Shown one piece after another: positions 13,946 through 27,977 of a stretch of 64,000 bases of DNA. Numbering within the stretch: the first letter of the stretch is position 1; each line of letters starts with the position of its first letter. Source of the stretch: Methylocella sp. (lineage in GTDB: Bacteria; Pseudomonadota; Alphaproteobacteria; Rhizobiales; Beijerinckiaceae); NCBI GenBank assembly GCA_036561105.1, contig DATBPZ010000019.1:14757-78756 (forward strand). The letters run 5' to 3'. The notes below the pieces were generated by a model, which ran no database searches, was not told the origin of the DNA, and saw only the letters and a program-made list of their open reading frames with translations. Made by a program: the position numbers and the translations under genes.

Positions 13946-14758
13946 ATGGGTGAAATGCGGCTTGTCGTTGCTGGAGCGGCTGGACGCATGGGCCGCGTGC
14001 TCATTGAGATCATTCGCCAAACGCCGGGCGCACATCTCGCAGGCGCGATAGAACAACCAAACTCGATCGCCATTGGCCAGGATGCGGGGCTACTCGCTGG
14101 TTGCGGCCAGATGGGCGTCGCGATCAGCGGCGACGCGCTCTCTGCCGTTGCCGCGGCAGACGGAATCCTCGATTTCACCTCGCCTCAATCGACGGTTGAG
14201 CTCGCGGCACTGGCTGCACAGGCTCGCCTTGTTCACGTCATCGGCACGACAGGCTTGAGCGCAGATGATCTCGCAAAAATCGAAGCCGCTGCTCGTCACG
14301 CAATCATCGTACGGTCAGGCAACATGAGTCTTGGCGTCAATCTCCTCGCCGCGCTTGTCAAAAAGGCCGCGAAAACGCTGGGGCCGGAATATGACGTCGA
14401 GATCGTCGAAATGCATCATCGCATGAAGGTGGATGCCCCCTCCGGGACCGCGCTTCTCCTCGGCACGGCGGCGGCGGAGGGGCGTGGTATCGCCCTCGAA
14501 GGGCACGCCATCCGCGCCCGTGATGGTCACACGGGCATGCGCAAAATCGGCGATATTGGCTTTGCGACGCTCCGCGGCGGCACCGTGATCGGCGATCACA
14601 AAGTTATTCTCGCGGGACCGAGCGAGAGAATCGAACTCACCCATATCGCGGAAGACCGCAATATTTTCGCGCGGGGCGCCGTACAGGCCGCGCTTTGGGG
14701 CAAAGACAAAAAGCCCGGCCTTTATTCCATGACGGACGTTTTGGGGCTCGGAGACTGA
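13946..14758 (+). CDS. dapB: 4-hydroxy-tetrahydrodipicolinate reductase
   Basis: 270 aa. N-terminal Rossmann motif [11 protein letters not shown] and the DapB signature [19 protein letters not shown]. Confidence 0.92.
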
Positions 14759-22448: not shown

Positions 22449-22925
22449 TTACTTCGTATTCAGCTTTCGCTGCTTTCGCCCGACCTGGACGTGAACCAGC
22501 ATCATCACTGGCAACGTTAGGCCAAAGGCAAGGTGGATGTCGCTCGCCCACGGTCTTAAGGCTTCTGAAGCCAGGTAATAAAGTCCAAAGGCGGTCACGA
22601 TCAGCACGGCATTACATACGGCCATGATCATGCCCGTGGCACGGTTTTTCCTTGCCCGCCAGGCGCGCCCGACATGCACGGGAACTAGGGCACCAAGCAG
22701 CATCAAGGTCACCATAGCGGTGCCGCCATGGATCATAAGAAGAGTGGCCGCGCTCTCTTGCCAGATTTCATTCTCGGAGGATTCTTTTATGCGGTCGGCA
22801 ACGAACCACGCCGCGCCGCTCATGAAAAGCACCCCGAACGCGGCATAGACCGCGAAGCGGAAGGGGGGATCAAGCCGCCAGAACGGCAGCATTTTGCCAC
22901 TCCGCGCTGACGCGGACTTCCCCAT
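22449..22925 (-). CDS. Small 4-TM membrane protein with four helix-end histidines (DUF4405-like, putative di-heme b-type)
   Basis: 158 aa (alternative ATG at 22892). Four hydrophobic helices. The only His residues are H66/H84 (helix 2) and H131/H145 (helix 4). It is the last gene of the ApbE operon and overlaps the apbE 3' end. Confidence 0.6.
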   Translation of the reverse strand: MGKSASARSGKMLPFWRLDPPFRFAVYAAFGVLFMSGAAWFVADRIKESSENEIWQESAATLLMIHGGTAMVTLMLLGALVPVHVGRAWRARKNRATGMIMAVCNAVLIVTAFGLYYLASEALRPWASDIHLAFGLTLPVMMLVHVQVGRKQRKLNTK

Positions 22926-23784
22926 CCGCCGTCACGAAAAGAGCGCTCGCGCCATATTGGCGGAGCAAGGGCGCCGAAGCTTCGGCCATGAGCATGACAA
23001 CCTTGGTCAAGGCGTCAGCCAAAAGGCAGGAGGGCGCGCGCACGCTTGCGCCGGTTACCGCGCGGACTGGTTCGCCGGTCGCCGGGTCGATGATCATTGG
23101 GCTCTGGGCATCCAGGGATTGCAAAGGATCATATCCGCTGCCGCTTGACGCCAGTGCCGCATTGCGCAGTTCGACCTGACATAAACCGCGGTCCGGTTGG
23201 CCTGGATCGCGTATGGTGACCATCAGTCCTTTCGGCCCAAAAGCGGCAAGATCACCACCGGCGTTGACAAGGCCGGACGGCATTCCGGAGGCGCGCAAAA
23301 CATCGATCGCGCGATCGACGGCAAACCCTTTGGCGATGCCGCCGAGATCAATCCGGATCCCGGAGTCATGAAACCGCACGCGGTGACCGGCGCGCAATTC
23401 GATTGCGCCGCCGACAAGCATCGTCCGGGAAATGTCTTGAATATCGCCCCCGTGATAAGGCAAGAGACCGAGCTTCTGCAAAGCGGGCGCAATCCTTATG
23501 TCGAACAGCCCATTCGAACAGCTGTGCAAATCAAGCGCCGTTTCGAGTACTTGATAGGTCCAAGGATGCACTTCCGTTGGTGCTTTAAAAGCCTCTCGGT
23601 TGAGGCGGCTCACATCGCTGCCCTCCTCATGAAAGCTCATCAAGCGATGCACGGTTTCAACCGCCATGAACGCCGCCTCGACGGCCGCCTCCATCGCCAA
23701 GGTCCCCGCACCGTCGGCGCCAATTTCGACAAAAGTTCCGAGCAGAGGCCGTAGCCGGTGGAGATTATCGCAGGTGGCTTGCAT
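22870..23784 (-). CDS. apbE: FAD:protein FMN transferase (ApbE family)
   Basis: 304 aa. ApbE hallmarks: LLGTFVEI near the N-terminus, DLGGIAKGFAVDRA, VNAGGDL, ASSG, and C-terminal LLADALTKVVML. No signal peptide or lipobox is visible. Confidence 0.85.
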   Translation of the reverse strand: MQATCDNLHRLRPLLGTFVEIGADGAGTLAMEAAVEAAFMAVETVHRLMSFHEEGSDVSRLNREAFKAPTEVHPWTYQVLETALDLHSCSNGLFDIRIAPALQKLGLLPYHGGDIQDISRTMLVGGAIELRAGHRVRFHDSGIRIDLGGIAKGFAVDRAIDVLRASGMPSGLVNAGGDLAAFGPKGLMVTIRDPGQPDRGLCQVELRNAALASSGSGYDPLQSLDAQSPMIIDPATGEPVRAVTGASVRAPSCLLADALTKVVMLMAEASAPLLRQYGASALFVTADGEVRVSAEWQNAAVLAA

Positions 23785-24232
23785 AATACGCCAATATTCT
23801 TTTCACCCCTTCCGTCACATGCCGCGACGACAAAGTGGCACCCGAGATGTTGCGAATATCCTGATTCATTTGCAGAGCGCTACCGCTGCTCTTGCCAACG
23901 AATTGTGAGAGCCAGCTCGCATCCGCGACTTCGAACCCGTAAGATTCCCGGTAAGTCAGAATCTCGACGCGGCGGACATGACCAGAGGCGTCAAGGGCAA
24001 CCGAATAGTCGATGTAGAGATGCTTGCCAATGACGTGGTCGACAAAGAAGTATCCGGCAACACTGCCGCCGTTAAGCGCCTTCCACACACGTTGTGGCTG
24101 AACCTCCTCGAAGCGGGCCCCCGGAAAGGCATGCTGCTGAGCCGCGCCGATACTCGAATATTGGTAAGCGTAGGCGGGCAAGGTTATCGCAACCGCCGCC
24201 GCCGGGGCGGCCCAGCGGATCCATCCATCCAT
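23765..24232 (-). CDS. Secreted FMN_bind-domain protein (predicted ApbE substrate)
   Basis: Track ORF 23765..24289; start set at ATG 24232, 7 nt after GGGAG (MDGWIRWAAPAAAVAITLPAYA, a signal peptide). The C-terminal motif DIRNISGATLSSRHV matches the NqrC/RnfG-type [S/T]GA[T/S] flavinylation site. Confidence 0.75.
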   Translation of the reverse strand: MDGWIRWAAPAAAVAITLPAYAYQYSSIGAAQQHAFPGARFEEVQPQRVWKALNGGSVAGYFFVDHVIGKHLYIDYSVALDASGHVRRVEILTYRESYGFEVADASWLSQFVGKSSGSALQMNQDIRNISGATLSSRHVTEGVKRILAYYASHLR

Positions 24233-24307
24233 GCCATAACTCCCTATCTGATCAGAAAGAATGTGCTGCCAGGATCGCGCTGATAGCACATTCTTGGCGT
24301 GCGCCGG

Positions 24308-26047
24308 TCAAAAGAAAAAGCCGACTCCTCCCAACACGCTGTCAGACTGCGCTCCGAGGGGTGCCGCATTGATCGCTCTCGTATAGTTCAATTTTAAAAC
24401 CAGCTCCGGCGTCGGATACACGGCGAACCCGACGTCGTGAAATTGTTGTATGCCAGAACCCGTGGGGAAGTTGAAATCGGTGCCGGCAAAACCGCCTGTC
24501 TGGAAATTCTGATAGGTGTAGCGATAAAATGGCACGGCTTCCCAATTGCTGCCGAGGATTGGACCAAAAAACGGAGTGAGTGGCAAGTGATAAGCGACCT
24601 CGGCGGATCCGCCAAACATGCTCTTACCGACGTTGTCGAAGGGATCTGTGTCGTTGTTCGCCCGCAAATTCGCCGGATTGCCAAACAGGACATCAACGAA
24701 TTCGCCGCGGAATTCGAGGCCCGTGTCAGGGACGTGGTAACGGAAATCCGTCTCGAAGATTGTGAGACTTGAACGGCCAAGTAATATCCCAGTATTGCTG
24801 TAGGCGCCCCGCGGCGTCGTGCTCGGGGTAAAGTAGACGGAAGAGCCGCCATCGAACCCTGGCCAAAATGCCGGCGCATAGCTCAGACGGAACGTATATC
24901 CAAGATAGTTGCTGAGCTGGCGGAAATCCCCCAATGGCGCTTGTGACAAGCCCAACGCGTCGATACCATCAATTCCGGGAGCATATCCGACCGGGAATAG
25001 TGGAACCCCGTTGGCATCCGTCCGCAACGCGAAATCATCGCCGAAATCTTCCAGCGCTTGACTGACCTGAAACTGATAATTCAGACCCTCGGTGATTTGC
25101 CCCCAAATGCTCGCCGCCGGAGCTTTCCACGTCGATGGTATGAGTCCGTTGTCAAGTTCCGGGCGCCGGACGCTATAGAAATTGGTGGGCTCATGATAAA
25201 GATTGAGCCAGTCGATCGGCACAAGATCAATGCCGGGCGCGCGAATGTTAAAATAGGGCGCAATTCTGAAATCGACATAGGCCTGCTCGATCTCGGCTGT
25301 CCCATGCAATTTGTCGTCGGCGTCGAATGCAACACCCCCGTGTTCGAATTCGATCTCGGAATTGAAAATGATATTATCAGTGAATTGATAGGTCGGGAGC
25401 AGCACAAGCCGCGCGGCGTCAAAGCCGGTTTGCCATTGACCGTTGGCGTCCGGGTTTTGCTGAGCCCCAAACCGCATTTCACCATAGGCGCCGATCTTCA
25501 GTCCCGGAAGCGGCGATGGCGCGACGCCGAAAAGATCCTCATTTGCCGGGGTCGGGGCTTCAAGCTGGGCGGTTTCCCGGGCTCCCATGTAACCGGGCGC
25601 GGGCGCAAGGTTCCAAGCCGCCGCGGGCGGCCTTTTGCCCGGCGGCATCGACTCGGGTACAACGGGCTGATCTTGCACCGATGCTTCTTTGGTGCCGCCT
25701 TTGCGCGTGTTCGCCACATGCGTCTTGGAGCCATTCGCCGCGGACCCCTCGCTTTTACTGCGATGAAGCTCGCCTTCGAGCGACCGGATGCGCGCTTCCA
25801 TCCTTTCCATCTTTTCGAGCAATTGTTCATTCGTAAGCTGGCCGCCCGCCTTTCCCTGCCCGGCCGCATCCTGAGCGAGCGCAGCGCTTGCTGTTGAAGC
25901 CAAGAGAGAAGCCACAGCAAGCGCCGAGGTCCAACCGCTGTTCCGCTTTACCGCAAGGGGATTTAGCGAAATCGGGCAAGTCAGCGTTGCCGCGCCAACC
26001 GTCTCATTATTTTTTGAGCCACCGGCGGCCCCTCGTTTGCCAAGCAT
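24308..26047 (-). CDS. Outer-membrane porin-like beta-barrel with N-terminal coiled coil (DcaP-like architecture)
   Basis: 579 aa. Signal peptide (..ALAVASLLASTASAALAQ), heptad-like segment LTNEQLLEKMERMEARIRSLEGELHRSK, and a Pro-rich linker. This is followed by a long region of alternating aromatic/polar beta-strand pattern ending in ...LGGVGFFF (C-terminal Phe OMP signal). Confidence 0.65.
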   Translation of the reverse strand: MLGKRGAAGGSKNNETVGAATLTCPISLNPLAVKRNSGWTSALAVASLLASTASAALAQDAAGQGKAGGQLTNEQLLEKMERMEARIRSLEGELHRSKSEGSAANGSKTHVANTRKGGTKEASVQDQPVVPESMPPGKRPPAAAWNLAPAPGYMGARETAQLEAPTPANEDLFGVAPSPLPGLKIGAYGEMRFGAQQNPDANGQWQTGFDAARLVLLPTYQFTDNIIFNSEIEFEHGGVAFDADDKLHGTAEIEQAYVDFRIAPYFNIRAPGIDLVPIDWLNLYHEPTNFYSVRRPELDNGLIPSTWKAPAASIWGQITEGLNYQFQVSQALEDFGDDFALRTDANGVPLFPVGYAPGIDGIDALGLSQAPLGDFRQLSNYLGYTFRLSYAPAFWPGFDGGSSVYFTPSTTPRGAYSNTGILLGRSSLTIFETDFRYHVPDTGLEFRGEFVDVLFGNPANLRANNDTDPFDNVGKSMFGGSAEVAYHLPLTPFFGPILGSNWEAVPFYRYTYQNFQTGGFAGTDFNFPTGSGIQQFHDVGFAVYPTPELVLKLNYTRAINAAPLGAQSDSVLGGVGFFF

Positions 26048-26091
26048 TGCTGTCTCCGTATTCCTGCAACTGACGCTACGCCGAGATAATA

Positions 26092-26217
26092 ACGCTTCTA
26101 ATCTAGCGTATTTCTACAGTCTGAACCGGCGGCAATACGTCGTCAATTACTTATACTTCTTTATATAAACTCTAAGTTGCATGTTTTAGAGTTAGAATAA
26201 GTATAAACTAGAAGCGT
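26092..26217. repeat. AT-rich block with three sets of inverted repeats in the divergent promoter region
   Basis: Three perfect reverse-complement pairs, checked by hand: ACGCTTCTA (26092-26100) / TAGAAGCGT (26209-26217); TTATACTT (26151-26158) / AAGTATAA (26199-26206); AACTCTAA (26168-26175) / TTAGAGTT (26186-26193). Confidence 0.6.
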
Positions 26218-26460
26218 AAAATAGAGGGCTGATTGCGGCAAATGAGAATTTGGCAGAACGGCAGCAAAATAACTGGTTAGAAGATGTTGCGCTTCTGCCA
26301 CACGCTTTGCGGATGAGTGGCAAAACGGATCCATTGAGGAGAAATAACTTTGACGGCCTTTGACGGAGTGCTGACTTGCCTTATAGGTTTGGCCTCCAGG
26401 CGCAGAGCCGGACGCACGCTGGGACGGCCTCATGTCAACGCGGTGCCATGACGTTGCTTC

Positions 26461-26534
26461 GCGGGTGTAGCTCAATGGTAGAGCAGCAGCCTTCCAAGCT
26501 GAATACGAGGGTTCGATTCCCTTCACCCGCTCCA
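26461..26534 (+). tRNA. tRNA-Gly (anticodon UCC)
   Basis: 74 nt. Acceptor stem GCGGGTG/CACCCGC, D-arm GCTCAATGGTAGAGC, anticodon loop CTTCCAA (TCC), T-arm GAGGGTTCGATTCCCTT, encoded 3' CCA. Confidence 0.93.
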
Positions 26535-26627
26535 ACTCTGCAATGCGATATTCCAGACAAGGCGAGGTGGCGGAGGTTTCTGCTCTGCCCGCTTCTTGGG
26601 GCGATTTGCGCGATTTTTCCAATCGAT

Positions 26628-27977
26628 ATGCCGCAAGCACAGGAGGCCAGCGGCAGTTCTGCGGTCACGGAAGATGTATCGTTACCGCCCGAGTTACAGC
26701 CAACGATCGCCTCGAGCATTCCGGCTCTTGCTGAATTTAAGAAAGGACTCTTTGATCTCGGCTATAATTTACAGTTCAGCTACTTTGCCGATGGCCTTGC
26801 GAATCCGACCGGGGGGGTCAAACAAGGTGCTGCTTATGAAGGCCTTCTTTACATGGTCCTCGATGCGGACCTTGCGAAGATAGCAGAATTGGATGGCCTA
26901 AGCTTTCGCATCAACGCATATCAAATCCACGGGCGCCAACTGTCTGCCTACAATATTTTCAACCTGGCCCCTGTCGATAGCATCGAGGCACGGCCGTCGA
27001 CGCGGCTGTTCGAACTGTGGGTCGAACAGAAGTTCGGCGATTTGGCTTCGATCCGCGTCGGCCAATTATCAGCCGACAATCAGTTTTTCATAAGTGAATT
27101 CGGCAACAGCGAATATATCAACAGCACATTTGGATGGCCGACGATATTTCACGCTGACTTGCCAGGGGGTGGAGGACCCAATTACCCTCTGGCTACTCCA
27201 GGGGTGCGCCTTAAAGTGACCCCAGACAATCATGTGACTCTTCTTGCCGGTTTGTACAATGGCGATCCAGCTGGGTCAGGATTCACCGGTACCCAGGAGA
27301 TAAAAGACCCGGCAGGAATTAACTTTCGCCTCCGGGACCCGCCTTTGCTGATGACTGAAGCGCAATATAGCTACAATCAAGACAAGGCTTCGCAGGGGCT
27401 CGCTGGGACGATCAAATTGGGCGGCTGGTATCATTTTGGTCCCTTTCCTGACGAACAGTTTAGTGTCCGTGGCAAGACGCTCGCCCTTCCAGACAGCGTG
27501 GCGGAGACTCACACCGGCGATTTCGGGATCTATGGCGTGATCGATCAGATGCTCTGGCACCTTCCGGACGCTGATCCAAAGAAGGGAGTCGGAGCCTTCG
27601 CCCGTGTGTCGGCAAGCCCGTCTGACCGTAACCTCATCAGTTTTTATGCCGAGGGGGGCATTAATTTCATGGGGCTTTGGCAGGAGAGACCCGACGACAG
27701 TTTTGGCCTCGCTGCGTCTTTTTCGCAGCTATCACCCGCCGCGGCGGCGCTCGATCACGAAAGAGATCTCCTATTACATGCCATCTTGCCCGTTCGTGAT
27801 TATGAGTTGGTCACCGAACTTACATATCAAGCGAAGATCATTTCGGGCTGGACCGTCCAACCTGATTTGCAATATATTTTTCATCCCGGCGGCGGCACAA
27901 TCGATCTGCTCAACCCCTTTACTGGGCGTATCCCTAACGCCGCCGTTTTCGCGGTGCGCACGCAAATCAGTTTCTAG
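26628..27977 (+). CDS. Carbohydrate-selective porin, OprB family
   Basis: The track ORF 26376..27977 reads straight through the tRNA gene, so the true start must lie after 26534. The first canonical start is ATG 26628. OprB-like N-terminal region (GLFDLGYNLQFSYFADGLANPTGGVKQGAAYEGLLYM), beta-barrel pattern, C-terminal ...VRTQISF. The start is problematic (see finding). Confidence 0.8.
   Translation: MPQAQEASGSSAVTEDVSLPPELQPTIASSIPALAEFKKGLFDLGYNLQFSYFADGLANPTGGVKQGAAYEGLLYMVLDADLAKIAELDGLSFRINAYQIHGRQLSAYNIFNLAPVDSIEARPSTRLFELWVEQKFGDLASIRVGQLSADNQFFISEFGNSEYINSTFGWPTIFHADLPGGGGPNYPLATPGVRLKVTPDNHVTLLAGLYNGDPAGSGFTGTQEIKDPAGINFRLRDPPLLMTEAQYSYNQDKASQGLAGTIKLGGWYHFGPFPDEQFSVRGKTLALPDSVAETHTGDFGIYGVIDQMLWHLPDADPKKGVGAFARVSASPSDRNLISFYAEGGINFMGLWQERPDDSFGLAASFSQLSPAAAALDHERDLLLHAILPVRDYELVTELTYQAKIISGWTVQPDLQYIFHPGGGTIDLLNPFTGRIPNAAVFAVRTQISF

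Follow-up and report, generated by a model that had tools for sequence, protein, structure and literature searches.

The 64,000-nucleotide (nt) stretch of Methylocella sp. DNA analyzed here (positions 14,757 to 78,756 of contig DATBPZ010000019.1; hereafter the window) carries on its minus strand four tightly packed genes that we interpret, with slightly better than even confidence, as an operon that responds to iron and acquires it reductively across the cell envelope. Positions below follow the numbering of this 64-kb window. Four open reading frames (ORFs) of 579, 174, 304, and 158 amino acids (aa) were called at 22449-26047. They encode, in order, an outer-membrane porin (24308-26047), a secreted FMN_bind protein (ORF 23765-24289), a leaderless ApbE-family enzyme (22870-23784), and a protein with four transmembrane (TM) helices and four histidines (ORF 22449-22925). 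The porin and FMN_bind genes are separated by a 75-nt gap, the FMN_bind and ApbE genes overlap by 20 nt, and the overlap between the ApbE and four-TM genes is 23 nt if the latter starts at the ATG at 22892 or 56 nt if the longer ORF is used. An earlier reading of the sequence alone (the original prediction) had described the same packing, and its gap and overlaps were all reproduced from the coordinates.

Profile hidden Markov model searches of Pfam placed the FMN_bind protein in PF04205 and the ApbE enzyme in PF02424 above the cut-offs, while neither the porin nor the four-TM protein had a match above cut-off. The porin was identified from its structure model and Foldseek matches and the four-TM protein from its histidine pattern, and all four identities given in the original prediction stand. 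No profile put the FMN_bind protein or the four-TM protein into an unrelated family with a defined role. A scan for promoters and terminators gave nothing beyond the shuffled expectation, and a search of the 20-nt overlap for a programmed frameshift that would fuse FMN_bind and ApbE found no slippery sequence.

The FMN_bind protein scored 41.4 bits against PF04205 (cut-off, 22; E value, 2.4e-10). Its true start is almost certainly the ATG at 24232, because every ortholog begins there with the pattern M-x-x-W-x-R-[W/Y]-x-x-P-A-A-A...A-Y-A, which gives a 155-aa precursor (23765-24232) instead of the 174-aa ORF. A conserved Sec signal peptide, MDGWIRWAAPAAAVAITLPAYA, would be cleaved before YQY to leave a single 133-aa domain. 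The motif DIRNISGATLSS contains the predicted flavin acceptor, Thr152 in ORF numbering (codon 23834-23836), and this Thr and the GAT-LSS pattern around it were invariant in 77 of 77 orthologs, with motif variants SGAT (54), AGAT (22), and SAAT (1). RnfG is the closest solved relative, and its ITGATITS aligns with ISGATLSS of the window protein; NCBIfam gave a sub-threshold RnfG/NqrC match here and a sub-threshold ApbE match for the enzyme. The Asp that commonly lies 6 residues before the acceptor Thr is not found at that place (D-I-R-N-I-S-G-A-T). The Pfam family, Sec signal, and SGAT motif bear out the original description of a secreted FMN_bind protein with an [S/T]GA[T/S] site, at which flavin attachment is predicted.

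Homologs of the four-TM protein are called from the ATG at 22892, which gives a protein of 147 aa (22449-22892; ORF to 22925) that is 97% identical to a homolog from Methylocapsa sp. D3K7. The host belongs to the Beijerinckiaceae and is Methylocapsa/Methylocella-like. An AlphaFold model contains four helices (pLDDT 71.5), and the predicted topology is N-in/C-in, with the loop RAWRARKNR and the tail GRKQRK on the cytoplasmic side. By the positive-inside rule, this charge distribution would make H66/H131 the pair close to the periplasmic face and H84/H145 the pair close to the cytoplasmic face. The two histidines of TM2 lie at depths that match those of TM4, and the TM4 pair is spaced by 14 residues. 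All four histidines were invariant in 21 close homologs. The family comprises 1,437 clusters at 50% identity, as collected at E <= 1e-3 by an exhaustive profile search. Among 45 of its members, which share 28-51% identity with the window protein, H84, H131, and H145 were invariant and H66 was present in at least 90%, and the four histidines, beside a few Gly and one Arg, were the best-conserved positions. The original prediction had expected both the acceptor Thr and the four histidines to be conserved in orthologs, and they are.

Below threshold, 26 of these 45 members matched Ni_hydr_CYTB (PF01292), to which the TM4 histidine stretch corresponds, and 10 of the 45 matched DUF4405 (PF14358), with E values from 1e-7 to 1e-2. 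UniRef names some Bradyrhizobium members DUF4405, a family that binds heme b and co-localizes with apbE (PMC11334425). Because of these recurrent matches, the UniRef labels, and heme b binding by DUF4405, we regard the four-TM protein as a candidate minimal di-heme cytochrome b of the DUF4405/cytochrome b561 type, although its relationship to these two families is borderline.

The third gene encodes a 304-aa member of the FAD:protein FMN transferases (FAD, flavin adenine dinucleotide; FMN, flavin mononucleotide). It matched PF02424 at 1.3e-47 and PDB structures of ApbE/Ftp at 1.8e-22 over residues 29-294, and the ApbE motifs GGIAKG, NAGGD, SSGSGY, and ADAL were seen in the alignment. Its ATG is preceded, 7 codons upstream, by an in-frame stop, and position 1 of the PF02424 profile aligns with residue 15, which leaves no space for either a lipobox or a signal peptide. 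Signal peptides were likewise lacking from the operon ApbE in 69 Hyphomicrobiales orthologs and 45 distant ones, and the extracytosolic placement of the classical enzymes, as lipoproteins or through a signal peptide, was thus not recovered for this one. Tat export through the N-terminal RRxRPLLGT was considered and rejected, since this motif is strand 1 of the ApbE fold and is not followed by a hydrophobic stretch. Cytosolic ApbEs exist, for example in Klebsiella, and are known only with cytosolic substrates (PMC12052999); because such enzymes are known, membership in the ApbE family stands despite the missing leader. The FMN_bind protein may be flavinylated before export, a second, exported ApbE may be encoded elsewhere, or the operon ApbE may have another role. 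The claim in the original prediction that this enzyme flavinylates the secreted protein is accordingly upheld as to family and called into question by the absence of a signal peptide from every ortholog.

In a relative with 79% identity (L001/L004; L001 7770-9125 and 10006-10921), the porin gene is separated from the FMN_bind gene by an insertion sequence element with a DDE transposase, and ApbE is broken into two ORFs. Decay of the operon seems to be under way in that genome.

An alignment of homologs gives the porin a long leader and a signal peptide ending in SALAVASLLASTASAALA before QD, with cleavage between ALA and QD. A coiled coil at residues 73-103 (25739-25831) contains the conserved segment LLEKMERMEARIRSLEGEL in the alignment and is a helix in the AlphaFold model; a variable low-complexity linker separates it from the barrel. 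The modeled barrel has 16 strands (residues 183-579, 24311-25501; mostly pLDDT 70-90), is strongly conserved in the alignment, and ends in the aromatic C-terminus GGVGFFF. Foldseek searches with the model returned OprO/OprP (E 1e-12) and OmpC/F-type porins as the best matches (E 1e-12 to 1e-10), and the strands, the helix, and these matches agree with the outer-membrane barrel and N-terminal coiled coil of the original prediction. The window porin had no Pfam match above cut-off, and sequence and profile searches of the PDB gave no real match. A distant ortholog from a like operon reached 49.9 bits against Porin_O_P (PF07396; cut-off, 20.9), and the same assignment is precomputed for a few close homologs. 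More than 1,300 porin homologs were found, almost all of them unnamed. The invariant barrel residues include 16 acidic residues, 9 basic residues, and 4 His, a composition that would suit a cation or metal channel.

A porin paralog with 70% identity stands alone in locus L002 (1469-7758), without FMN_bind, ApbE, or four-TM genes, and adjoins genes for a TonB-dependent receptor, ExbB, and ExbD and a TonB-sized gene.

We scanned one genome per species with the four-TM alignment as query and recovered 80 loci. Every one of them belongs to the Hyphomicrobiales (Beijerinckiaceae, Bradyrhizobium, Nitrobacter, Rhodomicrobium, and other Xanthobacteraceae). About 60 of the 74 informative loci keep the order porin, FMN_bind, ApbE, and four-TM, and no further gene was conserved across all of the Hyphomicrobiales loci. 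A second scan, of metagenomes, was seeded with 8 sequences from a distant four-TM subgroup that is ~34-49% identical to the window protein; on contigs of sufficient length, FMN_bind, ApbE, and four-TM genes again occurred together, around four-TM relatives with as little as 28-50% identity. Upstream of FMN_bind, the metagenome loci encode either a shorter Porin_O_P-type porin homolog (~14 loci) or a DUF6662 protein (10 loci), and about a dozen loci have no ApbE between FMN_bind and four-TM. The module is also present on the Ralstonia solanacearum megaplasmid (131 records), in the order porin with coiled coil, FMN_bind (NISGATLS), a lipase-like insert, and four-TM, with no ApbE. Across these lineages, synteny defines a conserved core of flavoprotein and four-TM protein, usually accompanied by ApbE and an outer-membrane protein. 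This arrangement is far beyond chance, and the synteny rules out chance clustering of the four genes. The recurrence of the set or its core in Hyphomicrobiales, metagenomes, and Ralstonia sustains the view in the original prediction that the genes act as one functional unit.

The DUF6662 proteins at the porin's place are ~300-380 aa long (L088, L106-L109, L114, L140, L147, L154, and L158). The chromosome of Nitrobacter sp. JJSN carries two apparently identical four-gene operons ~1 Mb apart (L068 and L070). In another variant, found in L020, L025, L029, L034, L036, L037, L038, L045, L052, and L053, a multicopper-oxidase-like gene occupies the position of the porin gene and is preceded by type II secretion genes (GspK, PilN-like, and GspM).

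Two palindromes that resemble the binding site of the regulator Irr (the iron control element, ICE, searched with the consensus TTTAGAA-N3-TTCTAAA) lie on the minus strand before the porin gene. Palindrome 1, TTTATACTTATTCTAAC (26191-26207), is 144 nt upstream of the porin ATG, has 3 mismatches, and is the sole match to TTTAGAANNNTTCTAAA with 3 mismatches or fewer in the whole window. Palindrome 2, ATTAGAAGCGTTATTAT (26086-26102), is 39 nt upstream and weak, with 4 mismatches, and aligns with the conserved CTTAGAAAGCTTATAAT box in four relatives (L004, L005, L007, and L009). Both boxes are kept in the otherwise diverged promoters of Beijerinckiaceae relatives.

Enrichment of the motif was assessed over the collected loci. 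There were 30 ICE matches with 2 mismatches or fewer in 1.19 Mb, 24 of which fell directly before the first gene of the operon, in regions that make up 8.4% of the sequence (binomial, 6e-21); most of the others precede a cytochrome b561 or feoA gene upstream of the operon. As a control for AT-richness, 140 composition-matched half-site permutations were searched for in the same upstream windows. The true ICE ranked 1st of 140, with 24 matches in 19 loci, compared to a permutation mean of 0.49 and a next-best value of 9. The motif is retained in different families and where the first gene of the operon has changed. In the multicopper-oxidase variant, the box lies directly upstream of FMN_bind, after the oxidase gene. 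In loci that carry PepSY_2 and cytochrome b561 genes, it lies upstream of this gene pair. A Fur-box scan of the non-alphaproteobacterial loci gave several weak matches (4-5 of 19 positions mismatched) at operon starts; made without a control, it offers a hint only.

The PepSY_2/cytochrome b561 pair occurs in cultured Bradyrhizobium just upstream of the porin gene and encodes a 92-aa PepSY_2 protein and a ~190-aa cytochrome b561 (Ni_hydr_CYTB) (L169 2029-2922 and L170 4861-5728; also L044, L056, and L073). It may be a second small redox couple of the same regulon.

Genes of iron metabolism recur next to the operon. feoA-feoB are immediately upstream and co-directional in ~12 Bradyrhizobium/Xanthobacteraceae loci and divergent from the operon in two Rhodomicrobium loci, and FeoB is encoded downstream in six distant metagenomic loci, so that feo adjacency takes three forms, in different lineages. 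Three loci of the DUF6662 variant have a ferritin-like gene ahead of the DUF6662 gene, several loci are flanked by TonB-dependent receptor, ExbB, or ExbD genes, and in a close relative (L084-86) the operon has genes for an Nramp transporter and a DtxR-type regulator next to it. The original prediction noted that none of the usual partners were present, which is true of the window, whereas relatives have feoAB, ferritin, TonB-system, and Nramp genes nearby. It also described the substrate as unknown. These neighbors and the upstream Irr boxes point to iron, without settling the question fully.

Within the window, an OprB-family porin (Pfam, 1e-81) is encoded on the plus strand at 26376-27977, divergent from the operon, and its ORF overlaps a tRNA-Gly(TCC) gene (26461-26534, plus strand). 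In L084-L086 (763-4327), Nramp/MntH and DtxR/MntR-like regulator genes sit between the OprB gene and the operon. The OprB, Nramp/MntH, and regulator set looks like a manganese-uptake unit, an importer plus a porin.

We postulate the following mechanism. Under iron limitation, the operon would be expressed under the control of Irr through the ICE-like boxes before the porin gene. The Porin_O_P-type porin, with its acidic and His-rich barrel, would admit inorganic or weakly chelated iron to the periplasm. The four-TM protein would hold two b-type hemes, an outer one between H66 and H131 and an inner one between H84 and H145, and would move electrons across the inner membrane from the quinol pool or a cytoplasmic donor. 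The FMN_bind protein, with FMN bound covalently to Thr152 by the ApbE-family enzyme, would take these electrons and reduce Fe(III) to Fe(II); alternatively, it may keep Fe(II) reduced in an oxic periplasm. Fe(II) would then be imported by FeoAB, which is encoded beside the operon in many relatives and would have to lie elsewhere in the genome of this host. The original prediction ran from an inner-membrane heme conduit through a periplasmic flavoprotein to an outer-membrane channel. Its first two steps match the published scheme for flavinylation clusters of the DUF4405, MsrQ, and PepSY types, in which a membrane cytochrome passes electrons to an extracytosolic protein flavinylated by ApbE (PMC8238504, PMC11334425), but we consider the porin more likely to be a metal entry route than an electron-transfer step.

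Several observations weigh against the iron acquisition proposal, which rests on computation for every member of the family. The window has neither feoAB nor any other iron gene within its 64 kb. Its ICE-like boxes are weak, at 3 and 4 mismatches, boxes with 2 mismatches or fewer occur in only 19 of 74 loci, and the counts overstate independence because the loci are phylogenetically related. The TM2 histidine pair of the four-TM protein is spaced by 18 residues rather than 13-14, and the window protein scored 22.8 bits against Ni_hydr_CYTB, below the cut-off of 30.1. Foldseek comparison of its model with the PDB returned generic four-helix bundles, none at E <= 0.001, a search made uninformative by a model that is a plain bundle at pLDDT 71.5. 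Sequence and profile searches of the PDB gave no real match for the family, and hhalign against the operon-adjacent cytochrome b561 of Bradyrhizobium gave a probability of <1%, with only the TM4 histidine pair aligned. The di-heme-cytochrome-b-like pattern of the original prediction is based on the four conserved histidines and on Pfam matches that stay below threshold; the fold and profile-profile searches gave nothing.

Further points concern the enzyme and the gene neighborhood. A leaderless ApbE is hard to reconcile with periplasmic flavinylation of a Sec-exported substrate. In addition, the HH that precedes IIDP in Treponema pallidum Ftp is replaced by PM in the window ApbE; distant orthologs mostly have xP[LI]VDP or similar, and 1 of 20 has a His (HPIIDP). 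His257 of Vibrio cholerae ApbE contacts FAD (PMC12052999); the alignment here was made to T. pallidum Ftp. Ten photosynthetic Bradyrhizobium loci encode a ~765-aa multicopper-oxidase-like protein in the porin's place, and in Ralstonia a di-heme peroxidase gene precedes the porin. (In R. solanacearum HA4-1, L167 4656-5900, this gene is annotated as a diacylglycerol kinase and actually belongs to the di-heme CCP/MauG family; Pfam, 8e-35.) Finally, B. diazoefficiens/japonicum is absent from the 120 closest Bradyrhizobium-type four-TM homologs, among which many species are named.

The last two gene arrangements would fit a module in which the same four-TM cytochrome and flavoprotein serve another acceptor, through reduction of Cu(II) or manganese for uptake, supply of a periplasmic oxidoreductase, or defense against peroxide or oxidative damage; the iron-gene neighbors would then mark general metal-stress islands. 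Besides the multicopper-oxidase-like protein in ten loci and the di-heme CCP/MauG gene directly upstream in Ralstonia, this explanation can draw on the Nramp and MntR genes that adjoin the operon in L084-86, on PepSY_TM relatives linked to the copper supply of oxidases (PMC13038864), and on MsrQ-type cytochromes, which supply a repair enzyme (PMC8238504). We nevertheless judge it unlikely, given that the commonest and independently arisen neighbors are feoAB, in three arrangements, and ferritin, that no partner oxidoreductase is conserved across loci, and that the enriched upstream motif is the box of Irr, a controller of iron genes, which even the multicopper-oxidase variant retains just upstream of FMN_bind.

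Two further alternatives change the role or the direction of the module. The four-TM protein might be no cytochrome at all and instead be a small permease or channel for Fe(II) or another divalent metal, with the histidine pairs as ligands and the flavoprotein reduced in some other way. Its lack of significant similarity to solved or curated cytochromes and the many loci, including the window, without feoAB nearby leave room for such a role, and in so minimal a four-helix bundle the invariant His, Arg, and Trp might just as well form the lining of a path for metal. The two histidine pairs at matched depths on two helices, however, form the classic bis-His di-heme arrangement, the sub-threshold Ni_hydr_CYTB and DUF4405 matches recur and are joined by UniRef DUF4405 labels, and DUF4405 binds heme b (PMC11334425). 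A periplasmic flavoprotein also needs a transmembrane electron source, for which no other candidate is conserved in the cluster, and a permease strikes us as improbable. A module run in reverse, which would oxidize periplasmic Fe(II) or another reductant imported by the porin and feed the quinone pool for energy or detoxification, is more improbable still, to the point that we give it very little credence. Such electron-transfer chains are reversible in principle (PMC8238504) and the hosts include lithotrophs such as Nitrobacter, but feoAB, ferritin, TonB systems, and Irr boxes fit acquisition under iron scarcity, Fe(II) oxidation beside a ferrous importer would be counterproductive, and the low midpoint potential of flavin makes it a poor oxidant of Fe(II).

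Returning to reductive iron acquisition, we can extend the proposal to a more specific form, to which we attach distinctly tentative confidence. The operon would provide aerobic Proteobacteria with a self-contained route for inorganic, non-siderophore iron uptake that combines a metal-selective porin, a ferric reductase with covalent flavin, a minimal four-helix di-heme cytochrome, and FeoAB; it would be the FsrB-independent reductase of Bradyrhizobium, and its leaderless ApbE would flavinylate the substrate in the cytoplasm before Sec export. In B. japonicum, the use of ferric iron in inorganic form depends on FeoAB and not on FsrB, and the reductase is stated to be unknown (PMC10760861). We treat the operon as a lead to the missing reductase of B. 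japonicum USDA110, not as a finding.

The proposal bears on the question of how aerobes that rely on Feo obtain Fe(II) from insoluble Fe(III). It introduces no new principle and offers a concrete candidate, readily open to test, for a step of bacterial iron uptake that is acknowledged to be missing. The four-TM family of ~1,400 clusters spans rhizobia, nitrifiers, methanotroph relatives, and the plant pathogen R. solanacearum. If it is correct, an outer-membrane entry component would be added to flavin-based extracytosolic electron transfer, and the DUF4405-like cytochrome class would be extended to a minimal four-helix form. The pairing of a cytoplasmic ApbE with a Sec-exported substrate poses a mechanistic puzzle, and flavinylation in the cytoplasm before Sec export would put the steps of this modification in a new sequence.

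Several known systems resemble parts of the operon. The outer-membrane component is closest in fold to OprO/OprP, which share the 16-strand barrel, are the top Foldseek matches, and belong to the Porin_O_P family whose threshold is passed by distant orthologs. The window porin differs from them in its N-terminal coiled coil and linker and in having no Pfam match of its own. The OprP pore is built on an arginine ladder, according to the title of PDB entry 2O4V. The conserved residues of the window porin are, in contrast, mainly acidic residues and His. MnoP is reported to be the Mn2+-specific outer-membrane channel of B. japonicum (Hohle et al. 2011, cited in PMC6011978). The window porin would resemble it as a metal-specific channel that is co-regulated with an inner-membrane metal importer.

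In the flavoprotein, the likeness is to Listeria PplA/FmnB and to RnfG/NqrC, in which an FMN_bind domain with an [S/A]GAT motif is flavinylated by an ApbE-family enzyme. PplA hands electrons to extracellular ferric iron (PMC8238504, PMC9973259), and flavinylated extracytosolic proteins more generally have been implicated in iron reduction and assimilation (PMC8238504). Unlike the Listeria extracellular electron transfer, Rnf, and Nqr systems, the operon encodes no Ndh2, EetAB, or DmkAB and no Rnf or Nqr membrane subunits, and its flavoprotein is a free, secreted single domain of 133 aa in a Gram-negative periplasm.

The proposed direction of electron flow is that of the MsrQ-like and PepSY-like proteins put forward as assimilatory iron reductases (Méheust et al. 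2021, PMC8238504) and of the ferric-siderophore reductases FoxB and FsrB (PMC10760861). In all of these, an inner-membrane di-heme protein serves periplasmic Fe(III) reduction, and the genes, which are found together with those of iron transporters, answer to iron regulators. In B. japonicum, FeoAB receives the product of FoxB/FsrB-type reduction (PMC10760861). The four-TM protein belongs to a different family and contains neither a PepSY nor a ferric-reductase domain. In relatives of the operon, the linked transporter is FeoAB, as opposed to VIT1, FTR1/P19, or a TonB receptor in those systems, and the outer-membrane component is a diffusion porin where the known reductase systems have a TonB-dependent receptor. 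The presence of a diffusion porin suggests that the substrate is inorganic or loosely bound iron and not siderophores. The stand-alone di-heme ferric reductase FrcB (Bll3557) of B. japonicum and related reductases are described as having large periplasmic domains (2026 paper, PMC13038864), which the 147-aa four-TM protein does not.

The DUF4405 systems (Huang, Méheust, Barquera & Light 2024, PMC11334425) share with the operon a small His-rich membrane protein that is encoded with apbE and a substrate, has four central histidines as its best-conserved positions, and is proposed to transfer electrons to an extracytosolic flavoprotein. The published examples come from Firmicutes and Proteobacteria and have six TM helices, Flavodoxin_4 substrates, and a flavin energy-coupling factor (ECF) transporter, with no link to a porin, Feo, or Irr. 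The window operon instead combines a four-TM protein that has no Pfam match above cut-off with a single FMN_bind substrate, a leaderless ApbE, and a porin.

In a full-text literature search, no paper connected either a porin or Feo with a flavinylation cluster. VIT1, P19/FTR1, and TonB receptors are named in the two systematic surveys, and Feo and porins are not (PMC8238504, PMC11334425); the 2021 screen dropped ApbE/FMN_bind genes without signal peptides, by which the operon ApbE would be removed (PMC8238504). The operon thus appears to be a variant of the known flavin-based systems that others have not described. The core idea, in which ApbE and a flavoprotein accompany a DUF4405-like cytochrome and may serve to reduce iron, is already published. 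New are a cytochrome with four helices, a dedicated partner that is either a porin or a DUF6662 protein, the associations with Feo and Irr, and the leaderless ApbE.

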